Part shown: positions 8,098-64,000 of the stretch, one piece after another
Layout of the letters: each line of letters opens with the position of its first letter
How positions within the stretch are numbered: the first letter of the stretch is position 1
NCBI GenBank assembly: GCA_964518565.1
Contig: CAZFGX010000001.1
Span: 203,046-267,045 of the forward strand
Direction of reading: 5' to 3'
DNA from: an uncultured Gammaproteobacteria bacterium
GTDB lineage: Bacteria > Patescibacteriota > Microgenomatia > CAZETR01 > Amesbacteraceae
Length of the DNA: 64,000 nucleotides
The notes under the pieces: generated by a model
What the model was told of the DNA's origin: nothing
Database searches by the model: none
What the model saw: the letters and a program-made list of their open reading frames with translations, nothing else
Program-made: the position numbers and the translations under genes

Positions 8098-8103
8098 ATC
8101 AAT

Positions 8104-26032: not shown

Positions 26033-27169
26033 ATGAAAGTGATAATGGTCATAGGTGTATATAATGAAGCCGAAAGTACACCCAAACTTATAGATGAGCT
26101 AGCGAAAGTCGTACCGCAAATTAAAAATCACCAATTAGAATTTCTTTTTGTGGATGGAAATAGTCCCGATGGAACTGCAACAATAATTAGAAAATATCAA
26201 CAGAAATACCCGTGGATACATTTGTTAGTAGAAAAAGAAAAAAATGGTTTAGGAGCAGCATATGCCATCGGTATGACATACGCAATGAAAGAGCTCAAGG
26301 CCGATTTTGTCGGTGAAATGGACGGAGATCTACAACATCCGCCCATGGTACTAAAAAAGCTTATAGATGAAATTGACAATGGGTATGAGTTTGTTATTGC
26401 TTCGCGTTATATACAAGGCGGGGAAATCCCCAAAGACTGGGGGTTCAGTAGAAAATTTTTAAGTGTTGTTGGAAATTTGGTTGCCCGTGTTTTACTAGTC
26501 TTGCCCAGGGTCCACGATGTGACTGGTGGATACAAAATTTCTAAAGTAAAGGGTTTCATGGACGAATTCGATTTTAAAAAATTGCTATCAAAACGTTTTG
26601 CATACAAAGTACATCTACTTTTTTATATGATTCAAAAAGGAGCCAAGGTCAAAGAGGTTCCATTTTCGTTTGCACCACGCCTAGCTGACGAATCAAAGAT
26701 AGGCAAAAACGACCTACAAGAAACATTAAGGGTAATTTTTTGGCTCCAATTTTACAATCCAAAATTACGACGATTCCTAAAGTTTGGTATTGTCGGAGGA
26801 ACCGGCTTAGCTATTCAAACGACTTTCTTCGAAGTCCTATCAGTATTTACTCAAACGTTAACACCCGCAATCGCAACAGTTATTGGAGGGGAAGTTGCAA
26901 TTTTAAGTAATTTTATCCTAAACAACTTTTGGACCTTTAACCAATTTAAAGTCACCGGAATAAAAATGATTAGCAAATTTGTTCAATTTAATACTACATC
27001 ACTTATTGCCCTGACTATCCAATTTGCTATACTAAAAATTGGCGAACATGTAGCTGCAGGTAATAAAGTAGTTATTCAAGGATTTTATTTTGGTGCAATT
27101 ATTCTCGTTTTAATTACAAACTACTATATCTACAACAAATTTATCTGGAAAACGGCAAAAAAGGAGTAA
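26033..27169 (+). CDS. polyprenyl-phosphate glycosyltransferase (GT2, DPM1/GtrB-like) fused to GtrA-like domain
   Basis: 'VIGVYNEAES', 'DGNSPDGT', 'EMDGDLQHPP'; C-terminal 'KFGIVGGTGLAIQ' 4-TM GtrA module. Confidence 0.7.
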   Translation: MKVIMVIGVYNEAESTPKLIDELAKVVPQIKNHQLEFLFVDGNSPDGTATIIRKYQQKYPWIHLLVEKEKNGLGAAYAIGMTYAMKELKADFVGEMDGDLQHPPMVLKKLIDEIDNGYEFVIASRYIQGGEIPKDWGFSRKFLSVVGNLVARVLLVLPRVHDVTGGYKISKVKGFMDEFDFKKLLSKRFAYKVHLLFYMIQKGAKVKEVPFSFAPRLADESKIGKNDLQETLRVIFWLQFYNPKLRRFLKFGIVGGTGLAIQTTFFEVLSVFTQTLTPAIATVIGGEVAILSNFILNNFWTFNQFKVTGIKMISKFVQFNTTSLIALTIQFAILKIGEHVAAGNKVVIQGFYFGAIILVLITNYYIYNKFIWKTAKKE

Positions 27170-28235
27170 AGTTAGAAATATCCAAGGCATTATTTCTTAC
27201 AAAATTTAACGTATACAAAAATAGAGGTATAGTCAAGAAAAGTAAAATTAGCTTCACTTCCTTTCTCGCCAAAAAATCTTCCAGTCCCAAAAGTACAACT
27301 GGTACCAAGGGTAGAGCATAACGGCTAATATCTCGATGCGAAACAAAAAGAATCGAGCCATAAAAAACCAAACCAAACCACCCCCAAACTTTGTGCATTC
27401 GAAATGTTTGCCAAATTCCTATTGCGCCAATCAAGTATATCCACAAAATATCTTCTAGCCAAAATGTACCCACCCACGATTGTGAGCTATCAAATACTTT
27501 AAACGGTAAAAGTTGTAAATGGATGTTATCTCCTGAATGAAAATAAGCCAAAAAATCCCCAGTCTGAAAATAATAGATACCAAACACGCCAAGAAGGCCT
27601 AAAGGAATAAAACATAAGAATACATATTTCCAATTAATCTTTTTTGTATTGAAAAGATTAAACAACGCATATAACCCGTAACTCACAAACAACAAAATAC
27701 CTGGACTCTTAGTAAATGTAGCCAATGCACCAAAAATTCCTGACCAAAAAAATTTCTTTTTTTCAAAAGAAAACAAAGATAAAACTATAAATAATAAAAA
27801 CAACGGCTCAGGGCTGGATATGGATCGAACTGCCCACATTCTGGGCCAGAAAAATAAACCTATCAGCGCCAAGGATAAAGCATGTTTGATGCCCAGTTTT
27901 AGATATACAACATACAAAACTACGCCATACAAAATACTCACACCGAACGTAGAAATTACTCCCGCGGTAAGCAAATTTGTTTGAGTTAAAAAACTTACCG
28001 CTCGAATTAATATGGGGAAAAGCGGAAAATGTGCAGCATAATATTCACTCGGTAGCGGAAAAGAAAATAAAGATTCAATACAAGATTTTTCATATCCACA
28101 ACGAGCAACTACAGAATAATAAGGTCCATCAAAATTTCTGTTGACAATAGATAATCCTGAAAAAATCCATAATATGACAGTTGACAGACCACATATCAAA
28201 AAAACTAGCAAAAGATCTTTCGCTCGAATCTTCAT
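27141..28235 (-). CDS. polytopic membrane protein, GT-C-like
   Basis: 364 aa, ~10 TM helices; convergent 29-nt overlap with upstream gene. Confidence 0.45.
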   Translation of the reverse strand: MKIRAKDLLLVFLICGLSTVILWIFSGLSIVNRNFDGPYYSVVARCGYEKSCIESLFSFPLPSEYYAAHFPLFPILIRAVSFLTQTNLLTAGVISTFGVSILYGVVLYVVYLKLGIKHALSLALIGLFFWPRMWAVRSISSPEPLFLLFIVLSLFSFEKKKFFWSGIFGALATFTKSPGILLFVSYGLYALFNLFNTKKINWKYVFLCFIPLGLLGVFGIYYFQTGDFLAYFHSGDNIHLQLLPFKVFDSSQSWVGTFWLEDILWIYLIGAIGIWQTFRMHKVWGWFGLVFYGSILFVSHRDISRYALPLVPVVLLGLEDFLARKEVKLILLFLTIPLFLYTLNFVRNNALDISNFTPFLPFSR

Positions 28236-28300
28236 TAAATCATCTTAGCGTACTAGTAAAACAGTTAGCAACTCCAGGCTAAAACTGGTATGATTGGCTC

Positions 28301-30484
28301 ATGAAAATTGGTTTGTCAGTTGTTATTCCAGCCTATAACGAAGAAGAAAATGTTGCTAGCTGTCTGGAAAAAGTAAACAAAGTCTTAAAAACGCATCCCG
28401 AAATTGATGCCCAAATAATCTTAGTAAACGATGGTTCAAAAGATAAAACAGGTAAGATAGCAGAAAATTATAAAAATAAAATCGGTAATTTAACGGTAGT
28501 CCACAACAATCCTAATCGGGGATATGGTGGCTCATTAAAAGCAGGTTTTGAAAAAGCAGAAAAAGAATTTATTGTATTCACTCCAGCAGATAACCAATTT
28601 GATTTTTCAGAAGTAACAAAACTAATTGACAAGCAAAAAGAAACAGATTCGGACATTGTATCTGGTATACGTGTTGGAGGAGGTGTAGATCCCATACATA
28701 GAAAGTTAAATAGATGGGGCTGGAATACTGTGGTTCGTGCGCTATTTGGATATTTAGCGACTGATATAGACTGCGGCTTCAAGCTTTTTCGAAGAGAAAT
28801 TTTGTCACATGTGTACATACCTGCCGAACGTGGAGCCATGATCGATACCCAACTCTTTGCAAGCGCTAGGGCTAAGGGGTTTTCTGTGGCTGAAATACCA
28901 CTAACACATCTTCCACGGACGGCTGGAAAATCAACAGGCGCTAATTTTCGAGTTATTATTCAGTCGTTTATTGACTTAATCACTTTTTGGTGGCAATTAA
29001 AAAAAGAAATTTTAGTAGAACGTGGTCTAGCAGTATTCCCATGGGAGATGATTGCAATTTTTAGTATTCTTATTATCTCTTTATTCCTCCGACTATACAA
29101 AATTGATCAGTATATGACATTTTTAGGGGATGAAGGCAGAGATGCCCTAGTGTTACGAGAAATCGTTTTAGGACAACATGTACCTCTCATTGGCCCCGGA
29201 ACATCTATAGGAAACATGTACCTAGGTCCTCTGTATTATTATCTAACAGCCCCTGCAATCGCTATTGCGAAACTTTCTCCAGTCGGACCTGCTGTAGAAG
29301 TAGCATTATTTGGCGTTCTTACTGTTGGACTAATTTGGTGGATAGGTCGTCAATGGTTTGGGAGAATCTCTGCTCTAGTAAGTAGTGTTTTGTATGCAAT
29401 TGCCCCCACTGTCATTATCTACTCTCGTTCATCGTGGAATCCAAATATCATGCCATTTTTTGCCCTACTAGCAATATATTCAATCTGGAAAGTATGGCGC
29501 TTTGGATATTGGCGCTGGTTACTAGTTACTGCAATAAGTATGGCATTTGTTTTAAATAGTCATTATTTGGGTCTTATCCTATTACCCACAATTTGTTTCG
29601 TCTGGCTTTTACGAAAAAAAACCCCGGAATCCAAAAAATATTCACTTCTTGCACTAATAATTTTCTGCGTATGCATGTCTCCGTTGCTTTTCTTTGATTT
29701 AAGGCACAACTGGCAAAACTCACGAGCGGTAAAACAGTTTTTTACCAACAGAGAAAACACTGTCAATTTAAAAGCATACAAATCCTTTCCAAAAATTATA
29801 CCTACCACCAGTGCGATATCTGAGACGCTATTGGCGGCTAAAAAACCTCAATTAAACATTTATATTATTATTTTTGTATCAGTAACATTTATATACGCCG
29901 CATTTTCTAAAAAAATATCCAAAGATATTGGATTTTTACTTTTATGGTTTTTTATCGGTTGTGTAGGACTAAGCTTGTACAAGCAACATGTATACGACCA
30001 TTATTATGGTTTCCTGTTTCCGGTACCCTTTCTTCTGTTTGGGTTCTGTATTTCGATTTTGTTACATCAAAAAAATATTTTAGTTAAAAGCATGGCAGTA
30101 ATTATAAGTAGTGCAGTAATTTTTATAAATCTTTCACAAAATCCTTTAAAATTTAGTCCAAATAACCAGCTAAAAAATACACAAATGATATCAGAATTCA
30201 TTAAAGAAAAATCTAGCGATCAGCCTTTTAATCTCGCGTTATTGTCTAAATCAAATTATGACGCAAGTTATAGATATTTTTTAACATTAAATCAATCTCA
30301 ATATAAAAAAATTGACCATCAAAAAACTAATCAATTATATGTAATCTGTGAGTATCAGCCCTGTTCTCCTATTGGTAATCCATTGTGGGAAATTGCAGCA
30401 TTTGGATGGGCAAAAATTGATTCAGTATGGAATGTGTCAGGCGTAGAAATCTATCGCTTGCTGCCTAACCCTCAAGGATCATGA
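28301..30484 (+). CDS. bifunctional GT2 (DPM-synthase-like) - GT-C membrane glycosyltransferase fusion
   Basis: N-term 'VVIPAYNEEEN...VNDGSKDKT...FTPADNQFD'; C-term polytopic domain with 'GDEGRDALVLREIVLG...GPLYYY'. Confidence 0.65.
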   Translation: MKIGLSVVIPAYNEEENVASCLEKVNKVLKTHPEIDAQIILVNDGSKDKTGKIAENYKNKIGNLTVVHNNPNRGYGGSLKAGFEKAEKEFIVFTPADNQFDFSEVTKLIDKQKETDSDIVSGIRVGGGVDPIHRKLNRWGWNTVVRALFGYLATDIDCGFKLFRREILSHVYIPAERGAMIDTQLFASARAKGFSVAEIPLTHLPRTAGKSTGANFRVIIQSFIDLITFWWQLKKEILVERGLAVFPWEMIAIFSILIISLFLRLYKIDQYMTFLGDEGRDALVLREIVLGQHVPLIGPGTSIGNMYLGPLYYYLTAPAIAIAKLSPVGPAVEVALFGVLTVGLIWWIGRQWFGRISALVSSVLYAIAPTVIIYSRSSWNPNIMPFFALLAIYSIWKVWRFGYWRWLLVTAISMAFVLNSHYLGLILLPTICFVWLLRKKTPESKKYSLLALIIFCVCMSPLLFFDLRHNWQNSRAVKQFFTNRENTVNLKAYKSFPKIIPTTSAISETLLAAKKPQLNIYIIIFVSVTFIYAAFSKKISKDIGFLLLWFFIGCVGLSLYKQHVYDHYYGFLFPVPFLLFGFCISILLHQKNILVKSMAVIISSAVIFINLSQNPLKFSPNNQLKNTQMISEFIKEKSSDQPFNLALLSKSNYDASYRYFLTLNQSQYKKIDHQKTNQLYVICEYQPCSPIGNPLWEIAAFGWAKIDSVWNVSGVEIYRLLPNPQGS

Positions 30485-31920
30485 AATACCTCAGTCTCCT
30501 GGTTGTTATTATTATAGTAGGTGCATTTTTCAGATTGTATCGAACCTCAGAGTTTTTAGGATTTTGGTACGACCAGGGCCGTGATGCAAAGATTGTTTGG
30601 TCAGCTATACACAATCAAAAATTATTCTTAATCGGACCAACTACAGGCATAGAGGGTATCTTCCTTGGGCCATTTTATTATTACTTACTACTTCCTTTGT
30701 ATTGGTTTGGTAAGGGTGATCCTCAAATTCCGGCAATGTCATTCGCTGTGATAAATGTAATAGTTATATTTTTTTTATACAAAATAGGGGAGATATTTAA
30801 AAACAAGAAAACAGGTCTAATAGCAGCCCTATTATATGGACTATCATCAGATCTGGTTCAACTGAGCCGATGGTTATCCAATCCTACACCGCTGCCTTTA
30901 TTCGCAGTAATCTGTATATATTGCTTAGCTAAAATTATTACAAAACAGGGCAGCAGAAAACATTGGTTAATTTCTAGTTTATGTGTTGGACTTGGCCTTC
31001 AGTTAGAAGCTGCTTCAGCTACGTTTTTTATACCCATTCTTGTAATTATCATTCTCATTTACAGAAAATATACAGTTAGTTCACTAGTGGTATTCACACT
31101 AACGCTTTTACCACAATTTATTTTTAACATTCGCCATGACAATATATTACTCGAAGCTTTTCAAAAATTTTTAATTACAGAAAAAAGTTTTATTCCCAAT
31201 ACATCATCATATATTTCTCATCGACTAAGCCAATACATAGATATCTTCTTAGGAAAAATATCTCATGATCAATATATTCAGTTTGCTGTAGGAATTATAT
31301 TAAGTGTAGCAATAATAGTTTATAGAAAAAAAATTATAAATAGAGTTTTTTTACTTCTAATGGTTTGGTGGGTATTGCCAATGCTAGTTTTATTGCTTTA
31401 CCACGGAAATCATGGATTTGTATGGAGTTATTATTTTATTGGAGCGTTTCCAGGTTTTATATTGTCGATCGCATGGATATTGGCTTCAATCAATCGATCA
31501 ATTATGTCTATTTTTTTGGCTTTATTTATATTGCAAAATATCGCGAGTAATATTTCATTTATTACCTTAAAACATCCCAATTACATTACATTTTCAGATA
31601 TATATCAAGCCGTGGAGTGGATTTATAAAGATAACAAGAACAACGATTTCAATGTCGATATATATGTGCCGCCAGTCATGACTGATGCATATGATTACTT
31701 TTTTTTATGGTTGGGTACAACCAAATATAGTCGACTGCCTTCAAGTCAAATGAAAAACCGTCTCTATCTAATAGCAGAACCAGATGGAGAACATCCATAT
31801 TATCGCCAAAAATGGCTGAACAGACAAAATACTTACGGCCAAATTGAACTAACCGACACTATTGGTCCGCTGTATATTGCGCGTCTATCAAGGTATGATT
31901 TCAGTAAATCCCATGAATAA
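30481..31920 (+). CDS. GT-C-like membrane glycosyltransferase (GRDA-motif family)
   Basis: 'WYDQGRDAKIVWSAI...FLGPFYYY' paralogous to C-domain of 28301 gene; ATGA coupling. Confidence 0.5.
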   Translation: MKYLSLLVVIIIVGAFFRLYRTSEFLGFWYDQGRDAKIVWSAIHNQKLFLIGPTTGIEGIFLGPFYYYLLLPLYWFGKGDPQIPAMSFAVINVIVIFFLYKIGEIFKNKKTGLIAALLYGLSSDLVQLSRWLSNPTPLPLFAVICIYCLAKIITKQGSRKHWLISSLCVGLGLQLEAASATFFIPILVIIILIYRKYTVSSLVVFTLTLLPQFIFNIRHDNILLEAFQKFLITEKSFIPNTSSYISHRLSQYIDIFLGKISHDQYIQFAVGIILSVAIIVYRKKIINRVFLLLMVWWVLPMLVLLLYHGNHGFVWSYYFIGAFPGFILSIAWILASINRSIMSIFLALFILQNIASNISFITLKHPNYITFSDIYQAVEWIYKDNKNNDFNVDIYVPPVMTDAYDYFFLWLGTTKYSRLPSSQMKNRLYLIAEPDGEHPYYRQKWLNRQNTYGQIELTDTIGPLYIARLSRYDFSKSHE

Positions 31921-33382
31921 GGCCACCACAACCATTTGCGTAGTCATTTTACTTATAGGAATGTTTTTACGAGTTTATGATTATAAAGAGCGTTTTTATT
32001 ATGGCCATGACAACGATCTTGCTTCATGGATTGTCAAAGACGTTGTTGTAAATCACCACCATAGGCTAATCGGCCAATTGACTTCATCTCCGGGAATATT
32101 TATTGGATCCTTTTTTTATTATGCATTAATACCGTTCTATCTTTTAGGTCATATGGATCCTGTATATAGCGTGGGCTTTTCATGGCTGATGAGTCTATTG
32201 TCTATTTTGAGTATATTTTATGTAACAGCAAAAATTCATGGAAAAAAGACCGCTATTTTTGCAACTCTTATTTATGCTCTTTCGTCAAGCATTGTTTCGA
32301 CTGATCGTGAGGTAGTGCCTACAACAGCTGTGCATATATGGTCTATCTGGTTTTACTATGCAATCTCAAATTGGTTTAATAAGAAAACAAATAGCATATA
32401 TATATTTGCCATATTGTTCGCATTGGTTTGGCATATTCATTTAATTTTAGGCCTGTTGTCCATAATTGTGATAATTGGCTATCTCCCTCAAATCAAGCAT
32501 ATTGAGATAAAAAAAATTATTCTGGCCGCAACAATATTTTTCATACTAGGCAGTCCTTTATTTAGTTTTGAATATCGGCATAATTTCTCTCAAACAAGAG
32601 CCTTATTTGGTTCTTTTGGTCAACATGCGAGAGTTGAAAGAACTGTATCAGAAAAATTTATACATGTAGGGGAGTATGTCGCAAAAAATATAAACAATAT
32701 TGTATGGGAAAAGCCAGAATCTATAAATAAATTTTTTATCCCCTTAATTTTGGCAATCTGCATATTGATTTCTTTCCTAAAACAAAAAGTTTCTTCCACG
32801 AGCATGCTCCCAGCCGCAATATGGATTGGACTGATAACGACTTTTTTTGCTCTCCATCCAATAAATTTATCTGAGTATTATTTAAACAGTTTAAACATTA
32901 TATGGATAGTCTGGATCGGGATTATATTTGCATCGATTTGGTCGAATAATAAAATCGCCAAATTTACTGTATTATCAGCGCTATCTCTCTTCGCATATCA
33001 CAACATTAATCGATATCTCTTCATGAACGTTAACAAGAGCGGTTATGTAGAAAAAACTGCAATTATTTCAGCCATTGCGCGCGATGCGCAAAATCATGGC
33101 TATCCTTGTGTGTCCATTTCATATATTACCGATCCTGGAAACAATTTAGGATACAGATATTTAATTTGGTACAAGGGTTTAAAAACAGCCCCAATCACAA
33201 ACAAAGTTCCAGTATATTCAATCGTATATCCACATGTACTCGTAGGAAAGATTGATGAGTCGTTTGGAGCAATAGGTCTAATTTATCCAGAATATGAAAA
33301 ATTTTCCATGGCTCGTATAATTGAAAATTGCCAAGGTCCTGATCAAAATACTACAGAATCCATGTTTGGTTTCACAAAATAA
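31913..33382 (+). CDS. GT-C-like membrane glycosyltransferase (GRDA-motif family paralog)
   Basis: ATG 31913 (track 31862 upstream extension unlikely); 'GHDNDLASWIVKD...FIGSFFYY'. Confidence 0.5.
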   Translation: MNKATTTICVVILLIGMFLRVYDYKERFYYGHDNDLASWIVKDVVVNHHHRLIGQLTSSPGIFIGSFFYYALIPFYLLGHMDPVYSVGFSWLMSLLSILSIFYVTAKIHGKKTAIFATLIYALSSSIVSTDREVVPTTAVHIWSIWFYYAISNWFNKKTNSIYIFAILFALVWHIHLILGLLSIIVIIGYLPQIKHIEIKKIILAATIFFILGSPLFSFEYRHNFSQTRALFGSFGQHARVERTVSEKFIHVGEYVAKNINNIVWEKPESINKFFIPLILAICILISFLKQKVSSTSMLPAAIWIGLITTFFALHPINLSEYYLNSLNIIWIVWIGIIFASIWSNNKIAKFTVLSALSLFAYHNINRYLFMNVNKSGYVEKTAIISAIARDAQNHGYPCVSISYITDPGNNLGYRYLIWYKGLKTAPITNKVPVYSIVYPHVLVGKIDESFGAIGLIYPEYEKFSMARIIENCQGPDQNTTESMFGFTK

Positions 33383-33386
33383 ATAT

Positions 33387-34148
33387 ATGCAACCATATCT
33401 GTCAATCATTGTTCCAGCATATAACGAAGAGCAAAACATTAATAAAGGGGTGATTGAAGGACTGGTCGAATATCTAAATAGTCAAACATTCACTTGGGAA
33501 ATACTAATTGTAAATGATGGCTCGACGGATCAAACAGATAAATTAATTAAGAAGATTTCAAAAGATAATAATAAAATTATTTACATACAAAACCCTCACA
33601 TGGGAAAGGCAGCTACAATTATGACCGGAGCGGCAAGAGCAAACGGTAAGTACTTTGTGTATACAGATATGGATCAAGCCACCCCAATTTCTGAAATACA
33701 TAAACTTTTGCACCAGCTAAATCAAGGTATAGACATTGTCATTGGTTCGCGCCAAAATCGAAAAGGAGCACCATTGTTTCGTCAAATATTGGCTTATGGA
33801 AATGTTATTATGCGCACATTAATTCTACGTCTACCGTATAAAGATACCCAATGTGGATTTAAGGCTTTTAGTTCATCTTCAGCAAAAAAAATATTTTTGA
33901 TTATGCAAAAATTCCATCCTCTAAAAGTGATTGACGGGCCAGCAGTAAATGCGGGATTTGATATGGAAATACTTTTTTTAGCCAGAAAATTAAAATATCG
34001 AGTGGTCGAGGTACCAGTTCAGTGGCGGCATCAAGAAACAAAACGTGTCTCGTTTATTAGAGATGCTTTCGCGAGTATGAAAGAATTAATGCTTATTCGC
34101 TATCGCGCGATTACAAATGCTTACGATCTAACCGATGACAATAAATAA
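33387..34148 (+). CDS. glycosyltransferase family 2 (polyprenyl-phosphate sugar synthase-like)
   Basis: 'LSIIVPAYNEEQNI', 'VNDGSTDQT', 'YTDMDQATP'; track 33321 start replaced by ATG 33387. Confidence 0.7.
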   Translation: MQPYLSIIVPAYNEEQNINKGVIEGLVEYLNSQTFTWEILIVNDGSTDQTDKLIKKISKDNNKIIYIQNPHMGKAATIMTGAARANGKYFVYTDMDQATPISEIHKLLHQLNQGIDIVIGSRQNRKGAPLFRQILAYGNVIMRTLILRLPYKDTQCGFKAFSSSSAKKIFLIMQKFHPLKVIDGPAVNAGFDMEILFLARKLKYRVVEVPVQWRHQETKRVSFIRDAFASMKELMLIRYRAITNAYDLTDDNK

Positions 34149-40914: not shown

Positions 40915-40944
40915 ACTTACGATGATACAATAATATGTATTGAT

Positions 40945-46570: not shown

Positions 46571-46591
46571 AGTAAGAAGTATAATATAAAA

Positions 46592-48208: not shown

Positions 48209-48211
48209 CTT

Positions 48212-56139: not shown

Positions 56140-57682
56140 GCTGGTTATATTAATAAGTTTTTTAATCATATGTGTGAGTCGAATTATATATATATCCCAG
56201 TTTCCGCCTAGCTTAAATTGGGATGAAGTCAGTTTAGGATACAACTCATATTCAGTACTAAAAACCGGTAAAGACGAGTGGGGCGTAGTACTACCAACAA
56301 TATTTCGAGCATTTGGCGATTATAAATTACCAGTTTATATTTATAGCCTAACTCCAGCAATCGCAATTTGGGGGTTAAATGAATTCACTGTTCGATTGCC
56401 ATCGATAATCTCAGGACTTTGTTCGTTGATTGTAATTTATATTTTGGCAAGGAAAATTTTTCCACAAAAAAAATACTTCGCATGGTTGGCATTAATTACA
56501 TATGCATTTTCGCCTTGGAGTTGGTTTTTATCTCGAATCGCTCTGGAAGCCAATGTAGCGTTAGCCTTTACATTACTAGGGATTGCGTGTCTACTTTTTC
56601 GTCGATTTTCTTCATCAGCTTTACTTCTTGGTTTGTCTGTCTGGACTTACAATGCAAATAGAATTTTTATTCCACTGCTCATTTTATTTTATTTCTATAA
56701 AAATTTTTCAGATATCCCACGCAAAAGTTTAACAATAATAGTATTGATTCTAGGTCTTATGTTTTTGCAAATTGCTACTGCTACTGGGCAAGCAAGATTT
56801 AGATGGACCACTATTTTGGACGAAGGAGCAATCGCTAAAATTAATGAGCAATCACTTGAATTTGGTGGAAGAATTCTCCATAACAAAGGAACCTATATTT
56901 TAGTCGAATTTACAAAAAATTATATAAGTCACTTCACGCCAAATTTCTTATTCATAAAAGGTGGAAACCAGTATCAATTTAGTGTGCAAAATATTGGAGT
57001 ACTAAATATTGCTGCCTTACCATTTTTCTATTTTGGATTGATTAGATTAATCAGGTACAAATCAAAATATAAATATCTTCTTTTGGTATGGGTTTTTTTA
57101 TCACCAATCCCCGCCAGTATTACTAGAGATGCGCCTCATGTACTGCGTTCGTTAGCATTATTACCTGTTTCAATTTTCATATCCATTATTGGATTAGATA
57201 TCATAATCAAAAAGTACAACAAGATAATATACTTTTACGTATTGATTTTAGTTATTTTTACAAGTGTTTATATAAATAAACTGCAAACATATAGGACAAA
57301 ATATTCATGGGCATGGCAATTTGGATACAAACAATTAGCTGAAAAGATATTTTTTGAATATCAAAATTTTGACCAAATTATTATTACAAAAAGATATGGT
57401 GAACCTCATGAATTTATTTTGTTTTATACTCAATATGATCCGGAAAAATTTCAATCAGATGAGAATCTAAATAGGTATTCGAAATCAGACTGGTTTTGGG
57501 TTGATGGGTTCGATAAGTTCAGATTTGTAAATGATTGGGAAATATCAGCCTTAGTTGCAAATTTACCACACGACAAAAAATATTTAATTGTTTCCAGCCC
57601 AGAATCACCAACAATTGGTTCTGGTATGTCCAATATTGAATTTCTAGATGGAAGCACAGCCTTTAATTTAAAACAATTATGA
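56126..57682 (+). CDS. PMT/ArnT-like GT-C glycosyltransferase (DE-motif family, tandem copy 1)
   Basis: 'NWDEVSLGYNSYSVLKTGKDEWG', 'GDYKLPVY', 'GLNEFTVRLPS'. Confidence 0.55.
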   Translation: MQKNKLVILISFLIICVSRIIYISQFPPSLNWDEVSLGYNSYSVLKTGKDEWGVVLPTIFRAFGDYKLPVYIYSLTPAIAIWGLNEFTVRLPSIISGLCSLIVIYILARKIFPQKKYFAWLALITYAFSPWSWFLSRIALEANVALAFTLLGIACLLFRRFSSSALLLGLSVWTYNANRIFIPLLILFYFYKNFSDIPRKSLTIIVLILGLMFLQIATATGQARFRWTTILDEGAIAKINEQSLEFGGRILHNKGTYILVEFTKNYISHFTPNFLFIKGGNQYQFSVQNIGVLNIAALPFFYFGLIRLIRYKSKYKYLLLVWVFLSPIPASITRDAPHVLRSLALLPVSIFISIIGLDIIIKKYNKIIYFYVLILVIFTSVYINKLQTYRTKYSWAWQFGYKQLAEKIFFEYQNFDQIIITKRYGEPHEFILFYTQYDPEKFQSDENLNRYSKSDWFWVDGFDKFRFVNDWEISALVANLPHDKKYLIVSSPESPTIGSGMSNIEFLDGSTAFNLKQL

Positions 57683-59277
57683 AAAAAAATCTGATTATAT
57701 TATTTGGTATTACTATTGTTGGATTTTTACTCCGATCCATATGTATCTCAACATTGCCACAAACGTTTACCTGGGATGAAGCTGCTTTGGGATACAACGC
57801 ATATTCAGTTCTAAAAACAGGTAGAGATGAACATGGTGTATTGTTTCCAATAGTCTTTAAGTCGTTTGGCGATTTTAAACCTGGTTTATATATCTATTTT
57901 TCAGTTTTGCCTATCCATTTGTTTGGATTAAATGAGTTCTCTACTCGGATTATTTCATCAATATTTGGTTCACTCTCAATTTTGGGAATTTTTAGTTTGA
58001 CATACATCATTACCAAAAACATGCGTTCTGCTTTGTATTCATCAATTACGCTAACTATCATGCCCTGGGCTATTCAATTTTCTCGTGCAGCTTGGGAATC
58101 TAACATTTGTGTTAGTCTAACACTTTTCGCCTCAACACTTTTCATAAGAAAAAAATATTTTGCTTCAAGCATATTATTTGGTTTAACATTCTGGACATAT
58201 CAAAGTGCAAAATTATTCACTCCAATTATTCTTTTTACACTAATTATTCTAAACAAAAAAAATATCACTACAAAAAACATAATAAAAATATGCACACCCG
58301 CTCTTTTATTATTAATTCCTATACTTCTTGGTTTATCTGTACAGTCTGGTAGATTGAAAGTATTTAGCGTTTTTTCCTACTCAAGACAACTGGATTTTGT
58401 GAACACTTTAGCCCAGCAAGATGGTACAAACATACAAAATATTTTTTTTAATATATTTCATGCTGAAATAATTGACCAGCTTAGGGGTGTAGAACAAAGA
58501 TATTTAAACTATTTTTCGCCCAAGTTTTTATTTTTTTCAGGAGATTGGTCAAATTCTCGGCATGCTACATTATATTATGGATATCTTCATATCGTGGATT
58601 TAATACCGTTACTTTTAGGTATTTATATACTGACAAGGTCAACATACAAGTATAAAAAATTTATTGCCGTATGGTTGTTTGCAACACCACTATTGGGTAG
58701 TCTCTCTAGAGATCTAATCTCTGGCGTTAGATCTTTATCCCTCATTGTTCCATTGGCTTTCATTATTGGAATAGGTCTCGAAAAATTATTACAAAAAAAA
58801 TTTTTTACAACTGTATACATTCTTTCTGTGATCTATCTATCTGTCTATTTTATTGACTTATATAGTATTCATACTACATATAAGGCGAATGATGAATCGC
58901 TTGTATCTTATAAGCCCGCAGTTGAGTCAATGTTGAAATATCAAGAAAAATATCGTCACGTCATCTTTTCTGACAAACTTGGACAGCCATATATATATAT
59001 TCTTTTTTATTCAAAAACAGATCCTAGAGTTTACCAAAAAGACCACATATTTGAAGATGGGGCAAATGGTGATGTGGGTAGGGTGGTTTCTATGTCGAAA
59101 TATTCATTTCGAAAAATTTACTGGCCTCAAGACCGAGGTGAAAGTGATACCCTATTCATAGGTGATGAGTTTGAGCTACCAGAGACGGATCTACAAACTG
59201 TAAACGGTATCCAAAGGTTAGACGAGATTTATTATCCAGATAGAAGATTGTCGTTTCATATTGTGGGGTTGCCATAA
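57679..59277 (+). CDS. PMT/ArnT-like GT-C glycosyltransferase (tandem copy 2)
   Basis: 'TWDEAALGYNAYSVLKTGRDEHG', 'GDFKPGLY', 'GLNEFSTRI'. Confidence 0.55.
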   Translation: MKKNLIILFGITIVGFLLRSICISTLPQTFTWDEAALGYNAYSVLKTGRDEHGVLFPIVFKSFGDFKPGLYIYFSVLPIHLFGLNEFSTRIISSIFGSLSILGIFSLTYIITKNMRSALYSSITLTIMPWAIQFSRAAWESNICVSLTLFASTLFIRKKYFASSILFGLTFWTYQSAKLFTPIILFTLIILNKKNITTKNIIKICTPALLLLIPILLGLSVQSGRLKVFSVFSYSRQLDFVNTLAQQDGTNIQNIFFNIFHAEIIDQLRGVEQRYLNYFSPKFLFFSGDWSNSRHATLYYGYLHIVDLIPLLLGIYILTRSTYKYKKFIAVWLFATPLLGSLSRDLISGVRSLSLIVPLAFIIGIGLEKLLQKKFFTTVYILSVIYLSVYFIDLYSIHTTYKANDESLVSYKPAVESMLKYQEKYRHVIFSDKLGQPYIYILFYSKTDPRVYQKDHIFEDGANGDVGRVVSMSKYSFRKIYWPQDRGESDTLFIGDEFELPETDLQTVNGIQRLDEIYYPDRRLSFHIVGLP

Positions 59278-60887
59278 TGTCAAAAAAAATTCTACTTATA
59301 TTCATACTCCTTGTCGCGACGATTTTGCGTCTAGTACAAATTACAAACTTTCCAGCCGGACTAAATGCTGATGAGGCAGCGCTGGGCTACAATGCATATT
59401 CTTTAATGAAAACAGGTAGAGACGAACACGGACATCCGTGGCCTGTCAATTTAGAGTCGTTTGGGGATTTTAAACCTGCAGGATACACATATATTCTTAT
59501 CCCATTTATTAAATTGTTTGGGTTAAATGAGTTTTCAGTACGACTTCCATCAGCAATTTTTGGCATTTTAGCAGTGTATTTGGTTTACAAATTAGCTAAG
59601 TCTACGGTAGGATCTGAGCATTTTATTGCCGCTGTTTTAGCATTTTCACCTTGGCATATTCAGTTTTCGCGCGGTGGTTGGGAAGTAAATGTCGCCAGCA
59701 CATTAATTTTACTAGCAGTTTATCAATTTACATTATGGCTTGAGTCAAAATCCTATCGATATCTATGTGTTTCATTTTTTTCACTAATATTTTCGATGTA
59801 TGTATACCAATCAGCAAGAATTCTCGCTCCGTTATTCGGTCTAGCACTAATTATACTAAATATGTATGTTGTAAAAAAACAGTTGAAACAATTTTTTCTA
59901 GTATGCATTCTATCTCTAGTACTGATCGCGCCGCTTGCCTATTCAATAGTTTCATCAAATGCCGCCTCTAGATTTTCTGGTGTTGGTTTTACAGCAGATA
60001 TGGGGCCTTTAAACAGAATAAATGAGTTACGAGGCCAACATCTCAACCAAAACGGTTTTATTTCTAAAATGCTTCATAACAAACCAATTGCGTATGGTTT
60101 CCAATTCATCTCAAATTATTTAGACCATTTTAATGGAAACTTCCTTTTCGTAAACGGCGATGTCATACATAGAAATAAAACTCCCGAAACAGGTCTATTA
60201 TATTTCACTGATATTGTTTTCGTTATCATAGGGACAATATTTTTAATCAAAAGTAAAAATAAAAGCAAAAATATTGTATGGGTCTGGTTATTTTTTAGTC
60301 CAATACCAGCTGCCTTAACCTTCCAGACCCCCCATGCATTGCGTGCGCAAAACATGGTGATACCACTAAGTTTTCTTGTAGGGTTAGGAATATACGCTAC
60401 AATAAAGTCATTCGGTAAATATAAATATTTTGTCACTGCTTGCATCTGTTGTGTCTATGCATGGCAAGTTGCCAGATTTATTCATGAATATACAGTGCAC
60501 TATCCAAAAACCTACCCTGATGCTTGGGAATACGGATTCAAACAAATAACCAGTGAGATAAAAGCACATGGTGATCAATATCAAAAAATTATTGTCACTG
60601 ATATTTATGATCAACCGTATATTTTAATATTATTTTATCTCAAATACGATCCAGAACTATTCCAAAAAAATCATCAACTTACTCCAAGAGACAAATTCAA
60701 TTTTTCCACTGTAACATCCTTCGATAAATTTTCATTCGAAAAAATTGACTGGGAGAAGATCAAAAACTCTAAAAACACATTATTGATAGGAAGAAAAGAT
60801 GAAATTCCAGATATAAAGTTGGATAATGTAATAACAATACCCGATCCAGACGGAAATCCGGGTTTTAAAATCGTACAACTTCCTTAA
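59277..60887 (+). CDS. PMT/ArnT-like GT-C glycosyltransferase (tandem copy 3)
   Basis: 'NADEAALGYNAYSLMKTGRDEHG', 'GDFKPAGY', 'GLNEFSVRLPS'; TAATG coupling. Confidence 0.55.
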   Translation: MSKKILLIFILLVATILRLVQITNFPAGLNADEAALGYNAYSLMKTGRDEHGHPWPVNLESFGDFKPAGYTYILIPFIKLFGLNEFSVRLPSAIFGILAVYLVYKLAKSTVGSEHFIAAVLAFSPWHIQFSRGGWEVNVASTLILLAVYQFTLWLESKSYRYLCVSFFSLIFSMYVYQSARILAPLFGLALIILNMYVVKKQLKQFFLVCILSLVLIAPLAYSIVSSNAASRFSGVGFTADMGPLNRINELRGQHLNQNGFISKMLHNKPIAYGFQFISNYLDHFNGNFLFVNGDVIHRNKTPETGLLYFTDIVFVIIGTIFLIKSKNKSKNIVWVWLFFSPIPAALTFQTPHALRAQNMVIPLSFLVGLGIYATIKSFGKYKYFVTACICCVYAWQVARFIHEYTVHYPKTYPDAWEYGFKQITSEIKAHGDQYQKIIVTDIYDQPYILILFYLKYDPELFQKNHQLTPRDKFNFSTVTSFDKFSFEKIDWEKIKNSKNTLLIGRKDEIPDIKLDNVITIPDPDGNPGFKIVQLP

Positions 60888-60888
60888 T

Positions 60889-61665
60889 ATGAAAAAAAAT
60901 ACCCTATCGGTTGTCCTTGCAGTGTATAACGAGTCTGATGTTTTAGAAAAAACATTAAATGCAATTAAAAATATTGCTGATGAAATAGTTATTGTAGATG
61001 GAAGTTCAACAGATAATACGGTTGAGATCGTTAAAAAGTTCAAGGCAAAAGTTATTTCCACCAGCAACAAACAAAATTTTCATATAAATAAAAATATTGC
61101 AATTGATGCTGCAACAAAAGATTGGATACTCCAACTTGATGCAGATGAAATAGTGAGTCCTGAACTTGCCAAAGAAATTGTAGAAAAAATAAATTCAAAT
61201 TCAGAATTCAATGGGTACTGGGTAAATCGAAGAAACTGGTTTCTAAATCAATTTTTAATGAAAGGCGGTCAATATCCAGACCCTACAATAAGATTATATA
61301 AAAGGGGAATGGGCAGACTTCCAGAAAAAGATGTGCATGAGCAAGCCACTGTAGAAGGTAAAACTACCTTTTTGAGAAATGATCTGTTTCACTATCGTGA
61401 CACAACATTTGAAAAGTATCTAAACGGATTCAATAGATACAGTTCATTTCAGGCTATACAGCTTGAACAAAAAAACATTCAAATAAATTTTTTAAATTCT
61501 TTGAAATATTTTTTTATCAAACCGATAAGCATTTTTCTATCAATTTTTATACGTCACCGTGGATATATAGATAAAACAGCTGGATTTATATTTGCTCTTT
61601 ACTCTAGTTTTATACCAATGATTGCTTACATGAAGTTGTGGCAAAAAAAATATATTAAAAAATGA
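60889..61665 (+). CDS. glycosyltransferase family 2
   Basis: 'LSVVLAVYNESDVL', 'VDGSSTDNT', 'LQLDADEIV'. Confidence 0.7.
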   Translation: MKKNTLSVVLAVYNESDVLEKTLNAIKNIADEIVIVDGSSTDNTVEIVKKFKAKVISTSNKQNFHINKNIAIDAATKDWILQLDADEIVSPELAKEIVEKINSNSEFNGYWVNRRNWFLNQFLMKGGQYPDPTIRLYKRGMGRLPEKDVHEQATVEGKTTFLRNDLFHYRDTTFEKYLNGFNRYSSFQAIQLEQKNIQINFLNSLKYFFIKPISIFLSIFIRHRGYIDKTAGFIFALYSSFIPMIAYMKLWQKKYIKK

Positions 61666-62723
61666 AACGCATCGCTTTTGTAAGCCAAAAAGAAATCACG
61701 GATCACTATGTTAGAGGAATCGGGTTCTATGTACAAAATCTTCTTCCGGAAATTCAGAGCTTGGCAAAAAAAATAGATATTGAAGTAGTAGAAATTTCAA
61801 ATACTCAAAAAGTATCAGAAAAGGATTATTCAATTGTACATTACCCATTTTTAGATATTTTTTATCCTACATTGCCATTAGTTTCTAAAGTTAATCGTAT
61901 AGTGACCATTCACGATCTAATACCATTAGAATACCCAAATGTTTATAAAACAGGAATAAAATCAAAGATAAATTTTATTCACCAATATCTATCTGTTAAA
62001 AGGTGTAACGCAATCATTACTGACTCAAATTATTCGGCGGAGAGTATACACAAGCATTTTAATACTCCACGATCAAAAATTAATGTAATTTATTTAGCTG
62101 GAGCAAACAAATTTAATATTGGAGATGACACAAAAAAAAATTCCCTTATCAAAAAAAAATATAATCTACCTAGTAAATTTATTCTTTATGTCGGAGATAT
62201 TAACTACACCAAAAATATTCAATCCCTAATACAGGTTTGTGTTCAAAATAAAATAAACCTTATCCTAGTAGGAAAGGCACTAACAAATATTGAAAATATC
62301 GACCTAAATCATCCAGAACATATCCATTTGAAAAATATTATTCCATTTTTATCATCAGCTTATGTTAAAAGACTTGGATTTGTACCAGATGAAGATTTGC
62401 CTTTTATTTACAAAGCAGCGACTCTATATTGCCAACCGTCATTTGCAGAAGGATTTGGAATGCCAATATTAGAAGCAATGAAATCAAAAACCCCTGTTTT
62501 GGTAAGTGATGCATTGGCAGTTTCTGAAATTATGGGGGCAAAAATGTCTAAATATCAATTTAATCCAAAAGATATGAACGATATGCAAAGAAAAATTGAT
62601 TTGTTATGGAATTCAGAATCAGAAAGGAAGACGAACATCGATCTTTGTATTGAAAGAGAGAAAAATTTTTCCTGGCAAGCGACTGCTAAACAAACCCTAG
62701 AAGTATACAAAAAACTTTTATGA
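61662..62723 (+). CDS. glycosyltransferase family 4 (GT-B)
   Basis: 'FAEGFGMPILEAMKSKTPVLVSD' E-x7-E motif. Confidence 0.65.
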   Translation: MKRIAFVSQKEITDHYVRGIGFYVQNLLPEIQSLAKKIDIEVVEISNTQKVSEKDYSIVHYPFLDIFYPTLPLVSKVNRIVTIHDLIPLEYPNVYKTGIKSKINFIHQYLSVKRCNAIITDSNYSAESIHKHFNTPRSKINVIYLAGANKFNIGDDTKKNSLIKKKYNLPSKFILYVGDINYTKNIQSLIQVCVQNKINLILVGKALTNIENIDLNHPEHIHLKNIIPFLSSAYVKRLGFVPDEDLPFIYKAATLYCQPSFAEGFGMPILEAMKSKTPVLVSDALAVSEIMGAKMSKYQFNPKDMNDMQRKIDLLWNSESERKTNIDLCIEREKNFSWQATAKQTLEVYKKLL

Positions 62724-63826
62724 TAAAAAAAATATCACTAATTTTTTTTTGTTGGCAATTAATAATAATATTTTTGACTCATACTAGCCAATATGTTTTA
62801 CCGCTTCAACCTGGCTATTTAGGCAATTCATTATCTGAGTATGAAAAAAATCCCATTTTATATTCAAGAGAAAATTTTGATGGAAACCATTACATATATA
62901 TAGCTACGCGTGGATATGGATTTGCTCAGCAAGCTTTTTTTCCTCTTTATCCCATGTTGATCAAAACAGTAAATTCATTTATCGCTAACCCTGTACTCAG
63001 TGGAGTTCTTATATCGATCGTCGCATGTTTTATAGGGCTAATTATATTAGCTAAAGTAATAGCGCTAGATTTTGGTGAGCAAATTGCTCTTTGGTCAATT
63101 GTTGCACTGATAATATTTCCCACCAGTTTCTTTCTGTCGTTTGTCTATACGGAGGGGCTATTTTTGTTTTTAACTGTTTCATGTATCTACTTATTTAAAA
63201 AAAATAAATTCTTATTGGCGGGTATTTTAGGAGGGTTGTCATCCTATACCAGGCTTTCGGGCATATTCCTATTTGTAGGAATTGCTACTGAATTTTTTAC
63301 AAATACAAAAAAAATTACATATAAGATCTTGTGCGTGCTCCTTATGCCCTTAGGGTTAATAACATATATGTACCAATTACAAAAAAATTACAACGATGGT
63401 TTGTTATTCATTCACGCACAAAAATTTTTTAATAACAATCGTAGCGAGCAAATTATTTTGCTGCCACAAACATTTTGGAGATATATAAAGATTATCTGGA
63501 CCGTAGATAGGCAAAACAATATTTATCCTGTAGCCCTTCTTGAGATATTTGTTACCCTTTTAGCTATATATTTACTAATAAAATATATTAAAATTCACCC
63601 AAAACTATATTCAATGTATTTTTTCTTATCAATAATAATACCCAGTTTAACCGGAACACTTACGTCAATACCCCGATATATGCTTGTATGTTTTCCCCTC
63701 TTTGTGGCAGTCGGCCAATTTTTGGCGAAGAGTAATTCAAGAATAAAATTATCTGTAACACTTAGTTCGATATTTATATTTTCAGCATTTTTGTTATTAT
63801 TCGTGAGAGGATATTGGGTAGCATGA
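62720..63826 (+). CDS. polytopic membrane protein, GT-C-like
   Basis: 368 aa, ~10 TM. Confidence 0.45.
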   Translation: MIKKISLIFFCWQLIIIFLTHTSQYVLPLQPGYLGNSLSEYEKNPILYSRENFDGNHYIYIATRGYGFAQQAFFPLYPMLIKTVNSFIANPVLSGVLISIVACFIGLIILAKVIALDFGEQIALWSIVALIIFPTSFFLSFVYTEGLFLFLTVSCIYLFKKNKFLLAGILGGLSSYTRLSGIFLFVGIATEFFTNTKKITYKILCVLLMPLGLITYMYQLQKNYNDGLLFIHAQKFFNNNRSEQIILLPQTFWRYIKIIWTVDRQNNIYPVALLEIFVTLLAIYLLIKYIKIHPKLYSMYFFLSIIIPSLTGTLTSIPRYMLVCFPLFVAVGQFLAKSNSRIKLSVTLSSIFIFSAFLLLFVRGYWVA

Positions 63827-64000
63827 AACAACTTTCAATAATTATTCCTGCCTATAAACAAGAAAAAACAATTGTAAAAAATTTACAAAATTTAGATAAA
63901 ATTGCCTCAAGGCTGAATATCTCATACGAAATTATATGTGTAGTTGATGGGATGCTAGACAATACCTGGTCAGAAGCAAAAAAAGCTAAATTGAAAAATG
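63823..64000 (+). CDS. glycosyltransferase family 2, 3'-truncated by window edge
   Basis: 'LSIIIPAYKQEKTI...VVDGMLDNT'; ATGA overlap. Confidence 0.55.
   Translation, partial: MKQLSIIIPAYKQEKTIVKNLQNLDKIASRLNISYEIICVVDGMLDNTWSEAKKAKLKN

Follow-up and report, generated by a model that had tools for sequence, protein, structure and literature searches.

A densely packed locus of GT-C glycosyltransferases with a conserved core gene order among Microgenomates

Polytopic glycosyltransferases (GTs) of the GT-C fold take part in several described glycan-assembly systems. Three-component systems, such as GtrA/GtrB/GtrV (enterobacterial O-antigen modification), CsbB-GtcA-YfhO, GtlA/GtlB (Firmicutes teichoic acids) and GacI-J-K-L (Streptococcus pyogenes) (PMC8035078), have one GT-C each, and a genome carries a handful of them at scattered positions. 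In the mycobacterial suite for arabinogalactan, lipomannan and lipoarabinomannan (EmbA/B/C, AftA-D, PimE, MptA/B and other GT87/GT83-type enzymes, with decaprenyl-phosphate sugars), many different GT-C enzymes work one after another on the outer side of the membrane, with polyprenyl-phosphate sugars as donors, and build one large glycoconjugate. Lipid-linked oligosaccharide (LLO) pathways with en-bloc transfer comprise the eukaryotic ALG enzymes with RFT1 and STT3, archaeal Agl with AglB and Campylobacter Pgl with PglB, and Wzx/Wzy-dependent loci typically span 10–25 kb and contain at most an odd GT-C. Here we analyse a 64,000-nucleotide stretch of contig CAZFGX010000001.1 (assembly GCA_964518565.1), hereafter the window, in which positions 26033–64000 had been described, in an original prediction made from the sequence alone, as an uninterrupted glycosylation supercluster. 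This region encodes 18 GT-C-type proteins, and the order of its core genes recurs across related genomes of Microgenomates.

The open reading frames (ORFs) of at least 100 aa in 26033–64000 were taken as the gene set, 30 in total; 27 of these follow one another on the + strand, and the – strand carries the other three (Table 1). All 30 were scanned with Pfam profiles, those without a Pfam match also with NCBIfam, and paralogy was assessed by all-against-all BLASTP of the window proteins. Glycan-assembly genes account for 28 of the 30 ORFs (27 GT genes and one flippase), so that the earlier count of about 30 GT-type genes was fair and nearly every gene is, as predicted, a GT2, GT4, Wzx or GT-C-like gene. 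The region comprises 18 GT-C-fold polytopic proteins (g22, the C-terminal half of g23, g24, g25, g27, g28, g30, g36, g38, g39, g40, g42–g47 and g50), seven stand-alone GT2 enzymes and one GT2 fused to a GT-C (g21, the N-terminal half of g23, g26, g32, g33, g34, g37 and g48), two GT4 enzymes (g35 and g49) and one Wzx/MOP flippase (g29); g41 and the doubtful g31 are left over without a family. GT-C enzymes (18), not Leloir GT2/GT4 enzymes (10), dominate the locus.

Eight of the 18 GT-C genes match families of the GT-C clan at the Pfam gathering score, namely PMT_2/PMT (g23 C-terminal half, g24, g27, g47), PTPS_related (g28), GT87 (g36, g40) and PIG-U/ALG6 (g39). PMT_2 is matched below threshold by another four (g42, g44, g45, g46). 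Three are assigned by paralogy alone (BLASTP 1e-16 to 1e-113), two, the g22/g50 pair, through homologues carrying PF04188/PF13231, and g30 by its predicted structure; g22, g25, g30, g31, g38, g41, g43 and g50 have no Pfam match of any kind. A hydropathy scan found 5–12 hydrophobic segments in all 18 candidates. The original prediction was exposed to the possibility that profile hidden Markov models (HMMs) would assign most of the polytopic proteins to transporters or unrelated families; instead, HMMs, paralogy, annotated homologues or a predicted structure identify all those of at least 360 aa in the region as GT-C-type, apart from Wzx.

The GT-C proteins include three larger paralogue families, A (g38, g42, g45, g46 and g47; 24–34% identity over the full length in BLASTP), B (g28, g43 and g44; 29–37% identity) and C (the C-terminal half of g23, g24 and g25), and the further pairs g22/g50 and GT87-like g36/g40. 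The first transmembrane (TM) helix is followed by an acidic residue, which occurs as DE in all five members of family A, as D in families B and C, as HPD/GD in the GT87-like genes and as GHDG in g30. DNA-level repeats among the paralogues are limited to a 62-nt stretch at the DE loop of family A and a 70-nt stretch at the D-A-D-E motif of GT2 genes, and no long repeats or recent duplications were found in the region beyond these stretches. Their confinement to catalytic motifs points to purifying selection on catalytic sites and, together with the 24–37% identity of the paralogues, to ancient duplications under selection and not to recent amplification or decay. The acidic loop residues and the selection at catalytic sites are signs that the GT-C paralogues may be active enzymes.

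For one of the 18, g30 (627 aa), neither Pfam and NCBIfam nor the sequences of the PDB gave a match. Its 1364 strong homologues (42–53% identity) all come from Microgenomates-type sources, and when 1.84 billion representative proteins were searched exhaustively with a profile, only 1562 family members were returned at E <= 1e-3. In an alignment of 45 members, H55-D56 is invariant within a loop, GFWGxNGHDGIWH, that follows the first TM helix, as are the blocks TPWNTIQFFYY, PSRPPA and EDEVN. AlphaFold2 models of g30 and g28, both with a membrane domain of multiple helices, were compared with solved structures. The confident g30 model (pLDDT 88.9, pTM 0.86) resembles the GT-C enzymes STT3B (score 19.3), ALG12 (18.2), Pmt4 (17.0), Pmt2 (16.5), ArnT (16.4), AglB (16.2), AftA (16.1) and PglB (16.1). 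At the sequence level, neither g47 and g28 nor the profile of g30 had a meaningful match among all PDB chains, and fold comparison alone gave matches. A profile-profile comparison found no relationship between the g30 family and family B (probability 1.5%), which are separate GT-C families. The model indicates that g30 represents a GT-C family beyond present HMM libraries, and by its homologues this family appears to be restricted to Microgenomates.

Catalytic subunits of oligosaccharyltransferase (OST) occupied the top nine Foldseek matches of the g30 model. The g28 model, from a second family, returned the same generic GT-C structure list with OST subunits closest, and such a list comes up for any GT-C enzyme, hence OST top matches are not diagnostic (PMC8035078). 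A regular-expression scan found a WWDYG-type motif in none of the 21 GT-C-like window proteins, and the STT3 HMM (PF02516) scored 19.9 bits with g28 against a cut-off of 24.5 and did not match g30. An OST identity for g30 was downgraded because of the missing WWDYG motif and the generic list shared with g28.

Gene fusions connect g30 with other components. About one quarter of the top 150 representatives of its family are proteins of 1000–1160 aa with a DUF3863-like N-terminal part of about 450 aa, and one protein of 1639 aa combines Wzx (14–488), DUF3863-like (494–909) and g30 (1061–1639) regions (P0097, P0250, P0266 and P0288 were examined for the DUF3863-like/g30 fusion; P0288 is the triple fusion). 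The DUF3863-like gene of the present genome is separate and lies 0.6 kb past the window end (L002 11876–13732, corresponding to 64595–66451); the last approximately 130 residues of its product resemble the C-terminal domain of g30. DUF3863 has one solved structure, 3LM3, which is uncharacterised. The fusions with Wzx and DUF3863-like regions suggest a functional link of g30 to the flippase. Within the window, the GT2 and GT-C parts of g23 form a single ORF, which could be a genuine fusion or stem from a frameshift or a difference in sequencing. In two related loci, L039 (731–3072) and L056 (10–1886), its halves are encoded by neighbouring genes that overlap but are separate. Taken together, the fusions link a candidate donor synthase with a transferase (g23), a candidate synthase with a flippase domain (g21) and Wzx with g30.

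Three GT2 proteins show sequence resemblance to polyprenyl-phosphate sugar synthases: g21, g26 and the N-terminal half of g23. The best NCBIfam matches of g21 are PgfS, ArnC, AglJ and Dol-P-hexose transferase, all far under cut-off, and with its C-terminal domain it is a candidate synthase with a built-in GtrA-type flippase module. ArnC and Dol-P-hexose transferase are the top matches of the N-terminal half of g23, and PgfS, ArnC and PpgS those of g26 (under cut-off), whose position is kept in 55 of 80 related loci.

These related loci were obtained by scanning the g30 alignment against one genome per species (GTDB r232), which matched 330 loci; 80 of them were compared, each with a flank of ±10 kb, by searching the window proteins against their ORFs. 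The core g23-g24-g25-g26-g27-g28-g29-g30-g32-g33-g34-g35 recurs almost everywhere among the 80 species' loci (Amesbacteria, Woesebacteria, Blackburnbacteria). Its shared 5' pattern consists of g23/g24/g25-type GT-C genes in one to three copies, g26 GT2, g27 PMT, g28, Wzx and g30, and the shared 3' pattern of g32-g33-g34 GT2, g35 GT4, a GT87-like or family C GT-C, two GT2 genes and a family A GT-C. Directly upstream of the g30 homologue is Wzx in 71 of the 80 loci, and directly downstream a g32-type GT2 in 66. Homologues of window glycan genes fill a median of 81% of 21.6 kb in the 55 loci whose flanks are complete, with medians of 15 glycan ORFs and seven GT-C-like genes (range 3–11); the equivalent span of the window, with 10 GT-C genes, is at the high end, yet typical of the lineage. 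Family B triplets (g43-g44-g28 types) and family A genes vary between species in number, position and orientation. Relatives also carry two conserved genes that are not in the 64-kb window, a YfhO-family GT-C of about 780–840 aa (39 loci; e.g., L017 15230–17737) and an S-adenosylmethionine-dependent methyltransferase (41 loci; e.g., L080 9081–9995), which hints at methylated sugars. Judged by these comparisons, the core is a conserved, syntenic, lineage-wide locus and not a strain-variable island of the O-antigen or capsule type.

The named homologues all belong to Patescibacteria/Microgenomates (Amesbacteria, Woesebacteria, Blackburnbacteria, Curtissbacteria) and the genome is about 1 Mb, both of which agree with the small-genome, episymbiont-type host that had been proposed. 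Méheust et al. (2019; PMC6744442) note that most protein families enriched in Microgenomates are hypothetical and that they often consist of membrane proteins; in the searchable literature, we came across no account of the present locus, of g30 or of DUF3863. Among the related loci, L004, L005, L007, L008 and about 30 more come from metagenome-assembled genome records titled 'uncultured Gammaproteobacteria bacterium' (binchicken/third-party co-assemblies). These names look like placeholders or mislabels, as content and synteny match Amesbacteria/Woesebacteria.

The same proteins were found on a 1,001,365-bp NCBI contig and on Logan assemblies of 130–135 kb (three independent assemblies), which argues that the gene arrangement is not an assembly artefact. 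The cluster runs at least 9.8 kb past the window end, in the order GT2, DUF3863-like (618 aa), short-chain dehydrogenase/reductase, GT2, GT4, GT4, a 334-aa unknown, GT2, epimerase/dehydratase and nucleotidyltransferase, so that nucleotide-sugar genes (the last two) stand at the distal end of a contiguous locus of at least 48 kb, or about 5% of the genome. G+C content is about 35% in the window and 31–37% across the region, without a compositional break, and no tRNA genes were found.

Coding sequence makes up 99.7% of 26033–64000. Adjacent genes overlap at at least 19 of the 24 same-strand junctions, which include 10 ATGA junctions (4-nt overlap), one TAATG and three gaps of 1–4 nt; most of the remaining junctions overlap by 8–28 nt, and g29/g30 by 26–47 nt. 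The pervasive overlaps of the original prediction were thereby borne out, whereas translational coupling is inferred from stop/start overlaps, and some of the long overlaps were start-codon artefacts: those of 59, 62 and 130 nt in the raw ORF list arose from taking the first possible start codon and were gone with better starts. An independent gene call on a second assembly places the starts of g43 and g44 32–112 nt past the upstream stop. For g25 the likely start is ATG 31913 (independent gene call, L001), the longest ORF beginning at 31862, and for g40 an internal ATG at 49444 is favoured by alignment with g36 over the longest ORF from 49342. The only + strand gap of more than 100 nt inside the core is that between g30 and g32 (40593–40944, 352 nt), with g31 on the opposite strand; an internal promoter could lie there.

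The data show the family and fold assignments, the conserved acidic residues of the catalytic loops, the conserved synteny and the gene fusions, whereas the carrier lipid, the sugars, the order of steps, a single product or several and the acceptor are inferred in a model to which we give somewhat better than even credence: a conserved, largely extracytoplasmic assembly line for a cell-envelope glycoconjugate, operating on polyprenyl-phosphate carriers. At the cytoplasmic face, the DPM1/GtrB/ArnC-type enzymes g21, g23 (N-terminal half) and g26 would charge polyprenyl phosphate and thereby supply donors, with g21 bringing its own GtrA-type flippase domain. The soluble enzymes g32–g35 (GT2-GT2-GT2-GT4), probably also g37, g48 and g49, would extend a lipid-linked oligosaccharide in the cytoplasm, which the Wzx protein g29 would carry across the membrane. 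There, g30 and its DUF3863-like partner may take over the flipped intermediate and either extend it or pass it to an acceptor. The other 17 GT-C enzymes, which belong to at least five paralogue families of ancient origin (PMT_2-like A and C, PTPS_related B, GT87-like and PIG-V-like), would add sugars derived from polyprenyl-phosphate sugars to the glycan or to the final acceptor outside the membrane, for which a wall polymer, a lipid anchor or a surface protein are candidates. Similar to the mycobacterial suite, many GT-C enzymes are present, including GT87 members (g36, g40), the top structural matches include AftA and AftD, and action in series outside the membrane towards one large glycoconjugate is proposed likewise. 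Different from it, neither UbiA-type and DprE1/2 genes nor enzymes of Emb size (about 1100 aa) were seen, the lineage is unrelated, and the genes form a single block here, whereas those of mycobacteria are dispersed over an approximately four times larger genome. No decaprenyl-phosphate-arabinose or -mannose donor family (UbiA-type, DprE1/2, Ppm1) was detected in the window by Pfam, only generic GT2 candidates.

Several results weigh against this assembly line. No initiating phosphoglycosyl transferase (PGT; WecA/MraY-type PF00953 or WbaP-type PF02397) was found among 50 window ORFs or in the 9.8 kb downstream, which leaves the cytoplasmic assembly without its first enzyme unless the gene is located elsewhere in the genome. 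Wzy_C/O-antigen ligase-type and Wzz/PCP proteins gave no Pfam match in any window ORF, no Wzy or Wzz/PCP gene was found in the 9.8 kb downstream, and neither an LCP ligase nor an ABC exporter was found in the window, in the 9.8 kb beyond it or among the representatives of unassigned ORF groups of related loci. These representatives (78 of at least 150 aa, from the 80 loci), when scanned for families, likewise contained no PGT, Wzy, Wzz or LCP family. The three candidate donor synthases reach 50–80 bits against named NCBIfam synthases with cut-offs of 325–529. A scan of 44001–64000 for sigma-70 promoters and intrinsic terminators yielded no excess over shuffled sequence. Furthermore, Wzx-type proteins are also able to flip polyprenyl-phosphate monosaccharides, as GacK does (PMC8035078), and the Wzx-g30 pair could be just one more three-component unit.

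Extending the latter thought to the whole region, one may see it as a mere collection of independent multi-component transmembrane glycosylation systems (GT2 synthase, flippase and GT-C), which decorate a separate acceptor per GT-C with single sugars (pili, S-layer or other surface proteins, wall polymers), g29 serving g30 in the manner of GacK. We regard this as possible, though not the expected outcome. All three component types occur repeatedly (g21, the g23 fusion, g26/g27 adjacency, Wzx/g30 adjacency), Wzx-type flippases and several systems per genome are known for such systems (PMC8035078), and the absence of PGT, Wzy and Wzz from the locus is what this explanation expects. Copy numbers of families A and B also differ between species. 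For the membrane-associated GT2 that makes a polyprenyl-phosphate sugar in the three-component systems, g21, g26 and the N-terminal half of g23 are candidates. A GtrA-type (g21, PF04138) or Wzx-type (g29) flippase and polytopic GT-C enzymes with a modified DxD/acidic loop, for which PMT_2 is the usual Pfam label, are shared with these systems, as are the tie of a GT-C to its synthase (in g23, and as adjacent genes in L039 and L056) and the YfhO-type genes in the locus of 39 related genomes. However, three candidate donor synthases would have to serve 18 GT-C enzymes, and the soluble block of three GT2 and one GT4 after g30, kept in most of the 80 loci, has no role in such a scheme. That about 12 core genes strictly keep their order throughout these loci suggests one co-functioning unit instead, and in contrast to the scattered systems with a single GT-C, the 18 GT-C genes stand within 38 kb in conserved order, are interleaved with Wzx and the soluble GT block, and include the g21 and g23 fusions. 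A further alternative, en-bloc glycosylation of the N- or O-type, in which a Wzx-flipped oligosaccharide undergoes ALG-like extension and is transferred to surface proteins by an OST-like g30 or g28, seems unlikely to us. It shares the logic of the LLO pathways (cytoplasmic GT-A/GT-B steps, MOP flippase, extracytoplasmic GT-C elongation and DPM1-like synthase) and could draw on the natural Wzx-g30 fusion and on 'O-glycosylation flippase' as the second-best NCBIfam match of g29. Among solved structures, g30/g28 come closest to STT3, PglB, AglB, ALG12 and ALG9, a likeness that is generic to the GT-C fold (PMC8035078). En-bloc transfer is opposed by the absence of WWDYG motifs and of STT3 HMM matches at threshold described above, by the lack of an ALG7/WecA-type enzyme in the locus, and by the fact that neither an LPXTG-bearing or otherwise marked substrate encoded nearby nor an acceptor protein was identified. 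We are similarly doubtful of its most far-reaching form, a Microgenomates counterpart of the endoplasmic reticulum (ER) and archaeal LLO pathway in one locus. Here, soluble GT2/GT4 enzymes would make a polyprenyl-PP-oligosaccharide, an RFT1-family Wzx would pass it straight to a DUF3863-like/g30 complex physically associated with the flippase, a dozen or more ALG-like GT-C enzymes would lengthen it outside the membrane with sugars from polyprenyl-phosphate donors, and a WWDYG-less OST (g30/g28) would transfer it en bloc to surface proteins or the wall. If true, no bacterial system of extracytoplasmic glycosylation known would be denser or more similar to that of the ER, and it would be a hallmark of the envelope of these ultrasmall episymbionts.

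That the region is a variable Wzx/Wzy-dependent island of the O-antigen or capsule type, shaped by phage or host pressure and horizontal transfer, we consider very improbable. It resembles such loci in that it has Wzx, soluble GT2/GT4 genes in a row, genes for nucleotide sugars on one side and the tight packing of an operon, and families A, B and GT87-like vary in copy number and orientation around the core. Nevertheless, the conserved gene order largely refutes an island origin for the core, which is kept across a class-level lineage with g30 and g28 42–53% identical to their homologues; Wzy, Wzz and PGT were not found in the window, in the 9.8 kb beyond it or among the unassigned representatives of related loci, G+C content is uniform with the rest of the window, and the ancient paralogues do not suggest recent amplification or transfer. 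With at least 48 kb and 18 GT-C genes, the locus also exceeds what is typical of these islands. Least probable, and next to negligible, is an annotation illusion in which most of the polytopic proteins are transporters, inactive paralogues or assembly artefacts. Part of the 18 GT-C genes are sub-threshold (four) or without a Pfam match (six), and assignment to GT-C by weak HMM matches is error-prone, but the sub-threshold genes are full-length paralogues of above-threshold genes and retain the acidic residues of the catalytic loop, and the same proteins and gene order recur on three independent assemblies and in 80 genomes, respectively. Paralogy, catalytic loops, annotated homologues and the fold matches of g30 and g28 refute mis-annotation.

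While the kinds of components are already known from three-component systems, mycobacterial GT-C suites and LLO pathways, the scale and density (18 GT-C genes in 38 kb of a 1-Mb genome) and the fixed core order across 80 Microgenomates species' loci are new. The same is true of a GT-C family without annotation that is fused to Wzx in nature, and of a locus at which the usual initiating, polymerising and ligating enzymes were not found. This genome of about 1 Mb has shed most biosynthetic pathways yet devotes about 5% of its length to a single glycan locus, and its relatives keep the same core order, so that the product is probably central to the envelope biology of the uncultured Microgenomates. 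The g30 family with its loop motif, the Wzx-DUF3863-g30 module and the GT2-GT-C donor-transferase fusion are testable parts. The paralogue families might be of use as diverse polyprenyl-dependent transferases for glycoengineering and for studying how GT-C specificity diversifies, the locus as a genomic marker, and its product as a handle for labelling or enriching Microgenomates cells.

Table 1. Glycan-assembly genes and accompanying ORFs of the window
Feature	Position	Strand	Assignment	Evidence or remarks
Upstream glycan block	503–8097	+	GT2 (503), polytopic g03–g05 (1333, 2906, 4545), processive membrane GT2 (6598)	
g21	26033–27169	+	GT2 + C-terminal GtrA/DPMS TM domain	PF00535 82 bits, PF04138 55 bits, both above cut-off
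g22	27141–28235	–	GT-C, PIG-V/Gpi18-like	g50 paralogue: 32% identity, E 1e-15; 6–8 predicted TM segments
g23	28301–30484	+	GT2 (residues ~1–245) fused to PMT_2 GT-C (~250–727)	PF00535 109 bits, PF13231 44 bits
g24	30481–31920	+	PMT_2 GT-C, family C	PF13231 41.6 bits; 25% identity to g23 C-terminal half, E 4e-26
g25	31913–33382	+	GT-C paralogue of g23 C-terminal half/g24	BLASTP E 7e-18 to g23, 2e-16 to g24; orthologues at the same place in relatives' loci
g26	33387–34148	+	GT2, polyprenyl-phosphate sugar synthase-like	PF00535 91 bits; likely start 33387
g27	34135–35643	+	PMT/PMT_2 GT-C (GT39/GT83-like)	PF13231 47 bits, PF02366 37 bits, above cut-off; orthologue in 54 loci
g28	35640–37295	+	PTPS_related GT-C, family B	C-terminal beta-sandwich domain + terminal TM helix
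g29	37274–38755	+	Wzx/MOP lipid-linked glycan flippase	PF13440 (Polysacc_synt_3) 143 bits, PF01943 60 bits; NCBIfam MOP flippase E 1e-36
g30	38709–40592	+	GT-C family without database annotation (by predicted structure)	GHDG loop after TM1, C-terminal globular domain
g31	40567–40914	–	115 aa, N-terminal hydrophobic segment, doubtful	No family match; no homologue in 80 loci
g32	40945–41853	+	Soluble GT2	PF00535 84 bits
g33	41850–42755	+	Soluble GT2, rhamnosyltransferase/GlfT1-like	PF00535, PF13641; NCBIfam matches
g34	42752–43504	+	Soluble GT2, paralogue of g32 + g48	PF00535 57 bits; BLASTP E 5e-30 to g32
g35	43477–44517	+	GT4	PF00534 81 bits; kept in 70 loci
g36	44514–45710	+	GT87-like GT-C	PF09594 39 bits (cut-off 25); HPD loop after TM1
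g37	45686–46570	–	GT2, one C-terminal TM segment	PF00535 82 bits
g38	46592–48208	+	Family A GT-C, PMT_2-like by paralogy	30% full-length identity to g47, E 8e-65; DE loop kept
g39	48212–49471	+	PIG-U/ALG6-like GT-C	PF06728 27.6 bits (cut-off 24.5), PF03155 23.9 bits
g40	49444–50658	+	GT87-like GT-C	PF09594 33.6 bits
g41	50651–51298	+	215 aa, membrane-anchored, N- and C-terminal hydrophobic segments	No Pfam/NCBIfam match
g42	51295–52902	+	Family A GT-C	PMT_2 17.9 bits, sub-threshold; E 1e-57 to g47
g43	52895–54547	+	Family B GT-C	Paralogue of g28: 37% identity over 542 aa, E 5e-113
g44	54520–56139	+	Family B GT-C	E 4e-67 to g28, 3e-74 to g43; PMT_2 18.6 bits
g45	56126–57682	+	Family A GT-C	PMT_2 20.8 bits; E 5e-79 to g47
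g46	57679–59277	+	Family A GT-C	PMT_2 25.0 bits; E 3e-88 to g47
g47	59277–60887	+	Family A GT-C, PMT_2/GtrII-like	PF13231 43 bits, above cut-off
g48	60889–61665	+	Soluble GT2	PF00535 91 bits
g49	61662–62723	+	GT4	PF00534 88 bits, PF13439 37 bits
g50	62720–63826	+	PIG-V/Gpi18-like GT-C	Homologues with PF04188/PF13231, some named 'Gpi18-like mannosyltransferase'
Next GT2 (260 aa), 5' end	63823–64000	+	Cut by window edge	ATGA junction in sequence

Together with the upstream glycan block, about 45 of the 64 kb (71%) encode glycan machinery, in keeping with the earlier estimate of over half of the window; within this sum, g05 has no family and g03 and g04 are sub-threshold. The matches of g03 and g04 are weak, to the NCBIfam LA_3751/LA_3752 putative-GT family and to PMT_2, respectively, and a GT-C assignment of g03–g05 is tentative. 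The processive GT2 (Glyco_trans_2_3, cellulose-synthase-like) at 6598–8097 is followed by an HlyD-like barrel-sandwich protein (8104–8892) and directly thereafter by a protein with a GH81 C-terminal domain (8889–10787). GH81 is a family of endo-beta-1,3-glucanases, and the trio at 6598–10787 may be a module for beta-glucan synthesis and trimming that is separate from the main locus.

Farther along, 10788–15218 encodes a predicted surface protein of 1476 aa with a glucose/sorbosone-dehydrogenase beta-propeller, PKD and six PA14 (carbohydrate-binding) domains, which might act as an adhesin or interact with the surface coat by binding glycans. A sortase gene (17386–17895) adjoins an fn3-domain protein (16527–17895 region), and no LPXTG-like C-terminal sorting signal was found among the window ORFs. 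Between 19503 and 23562 lie three paralogous ORFs without a family match, two on the + strand (414 and 719 aa) and one on the – strand (200 aa), with 31–40% identity among them.

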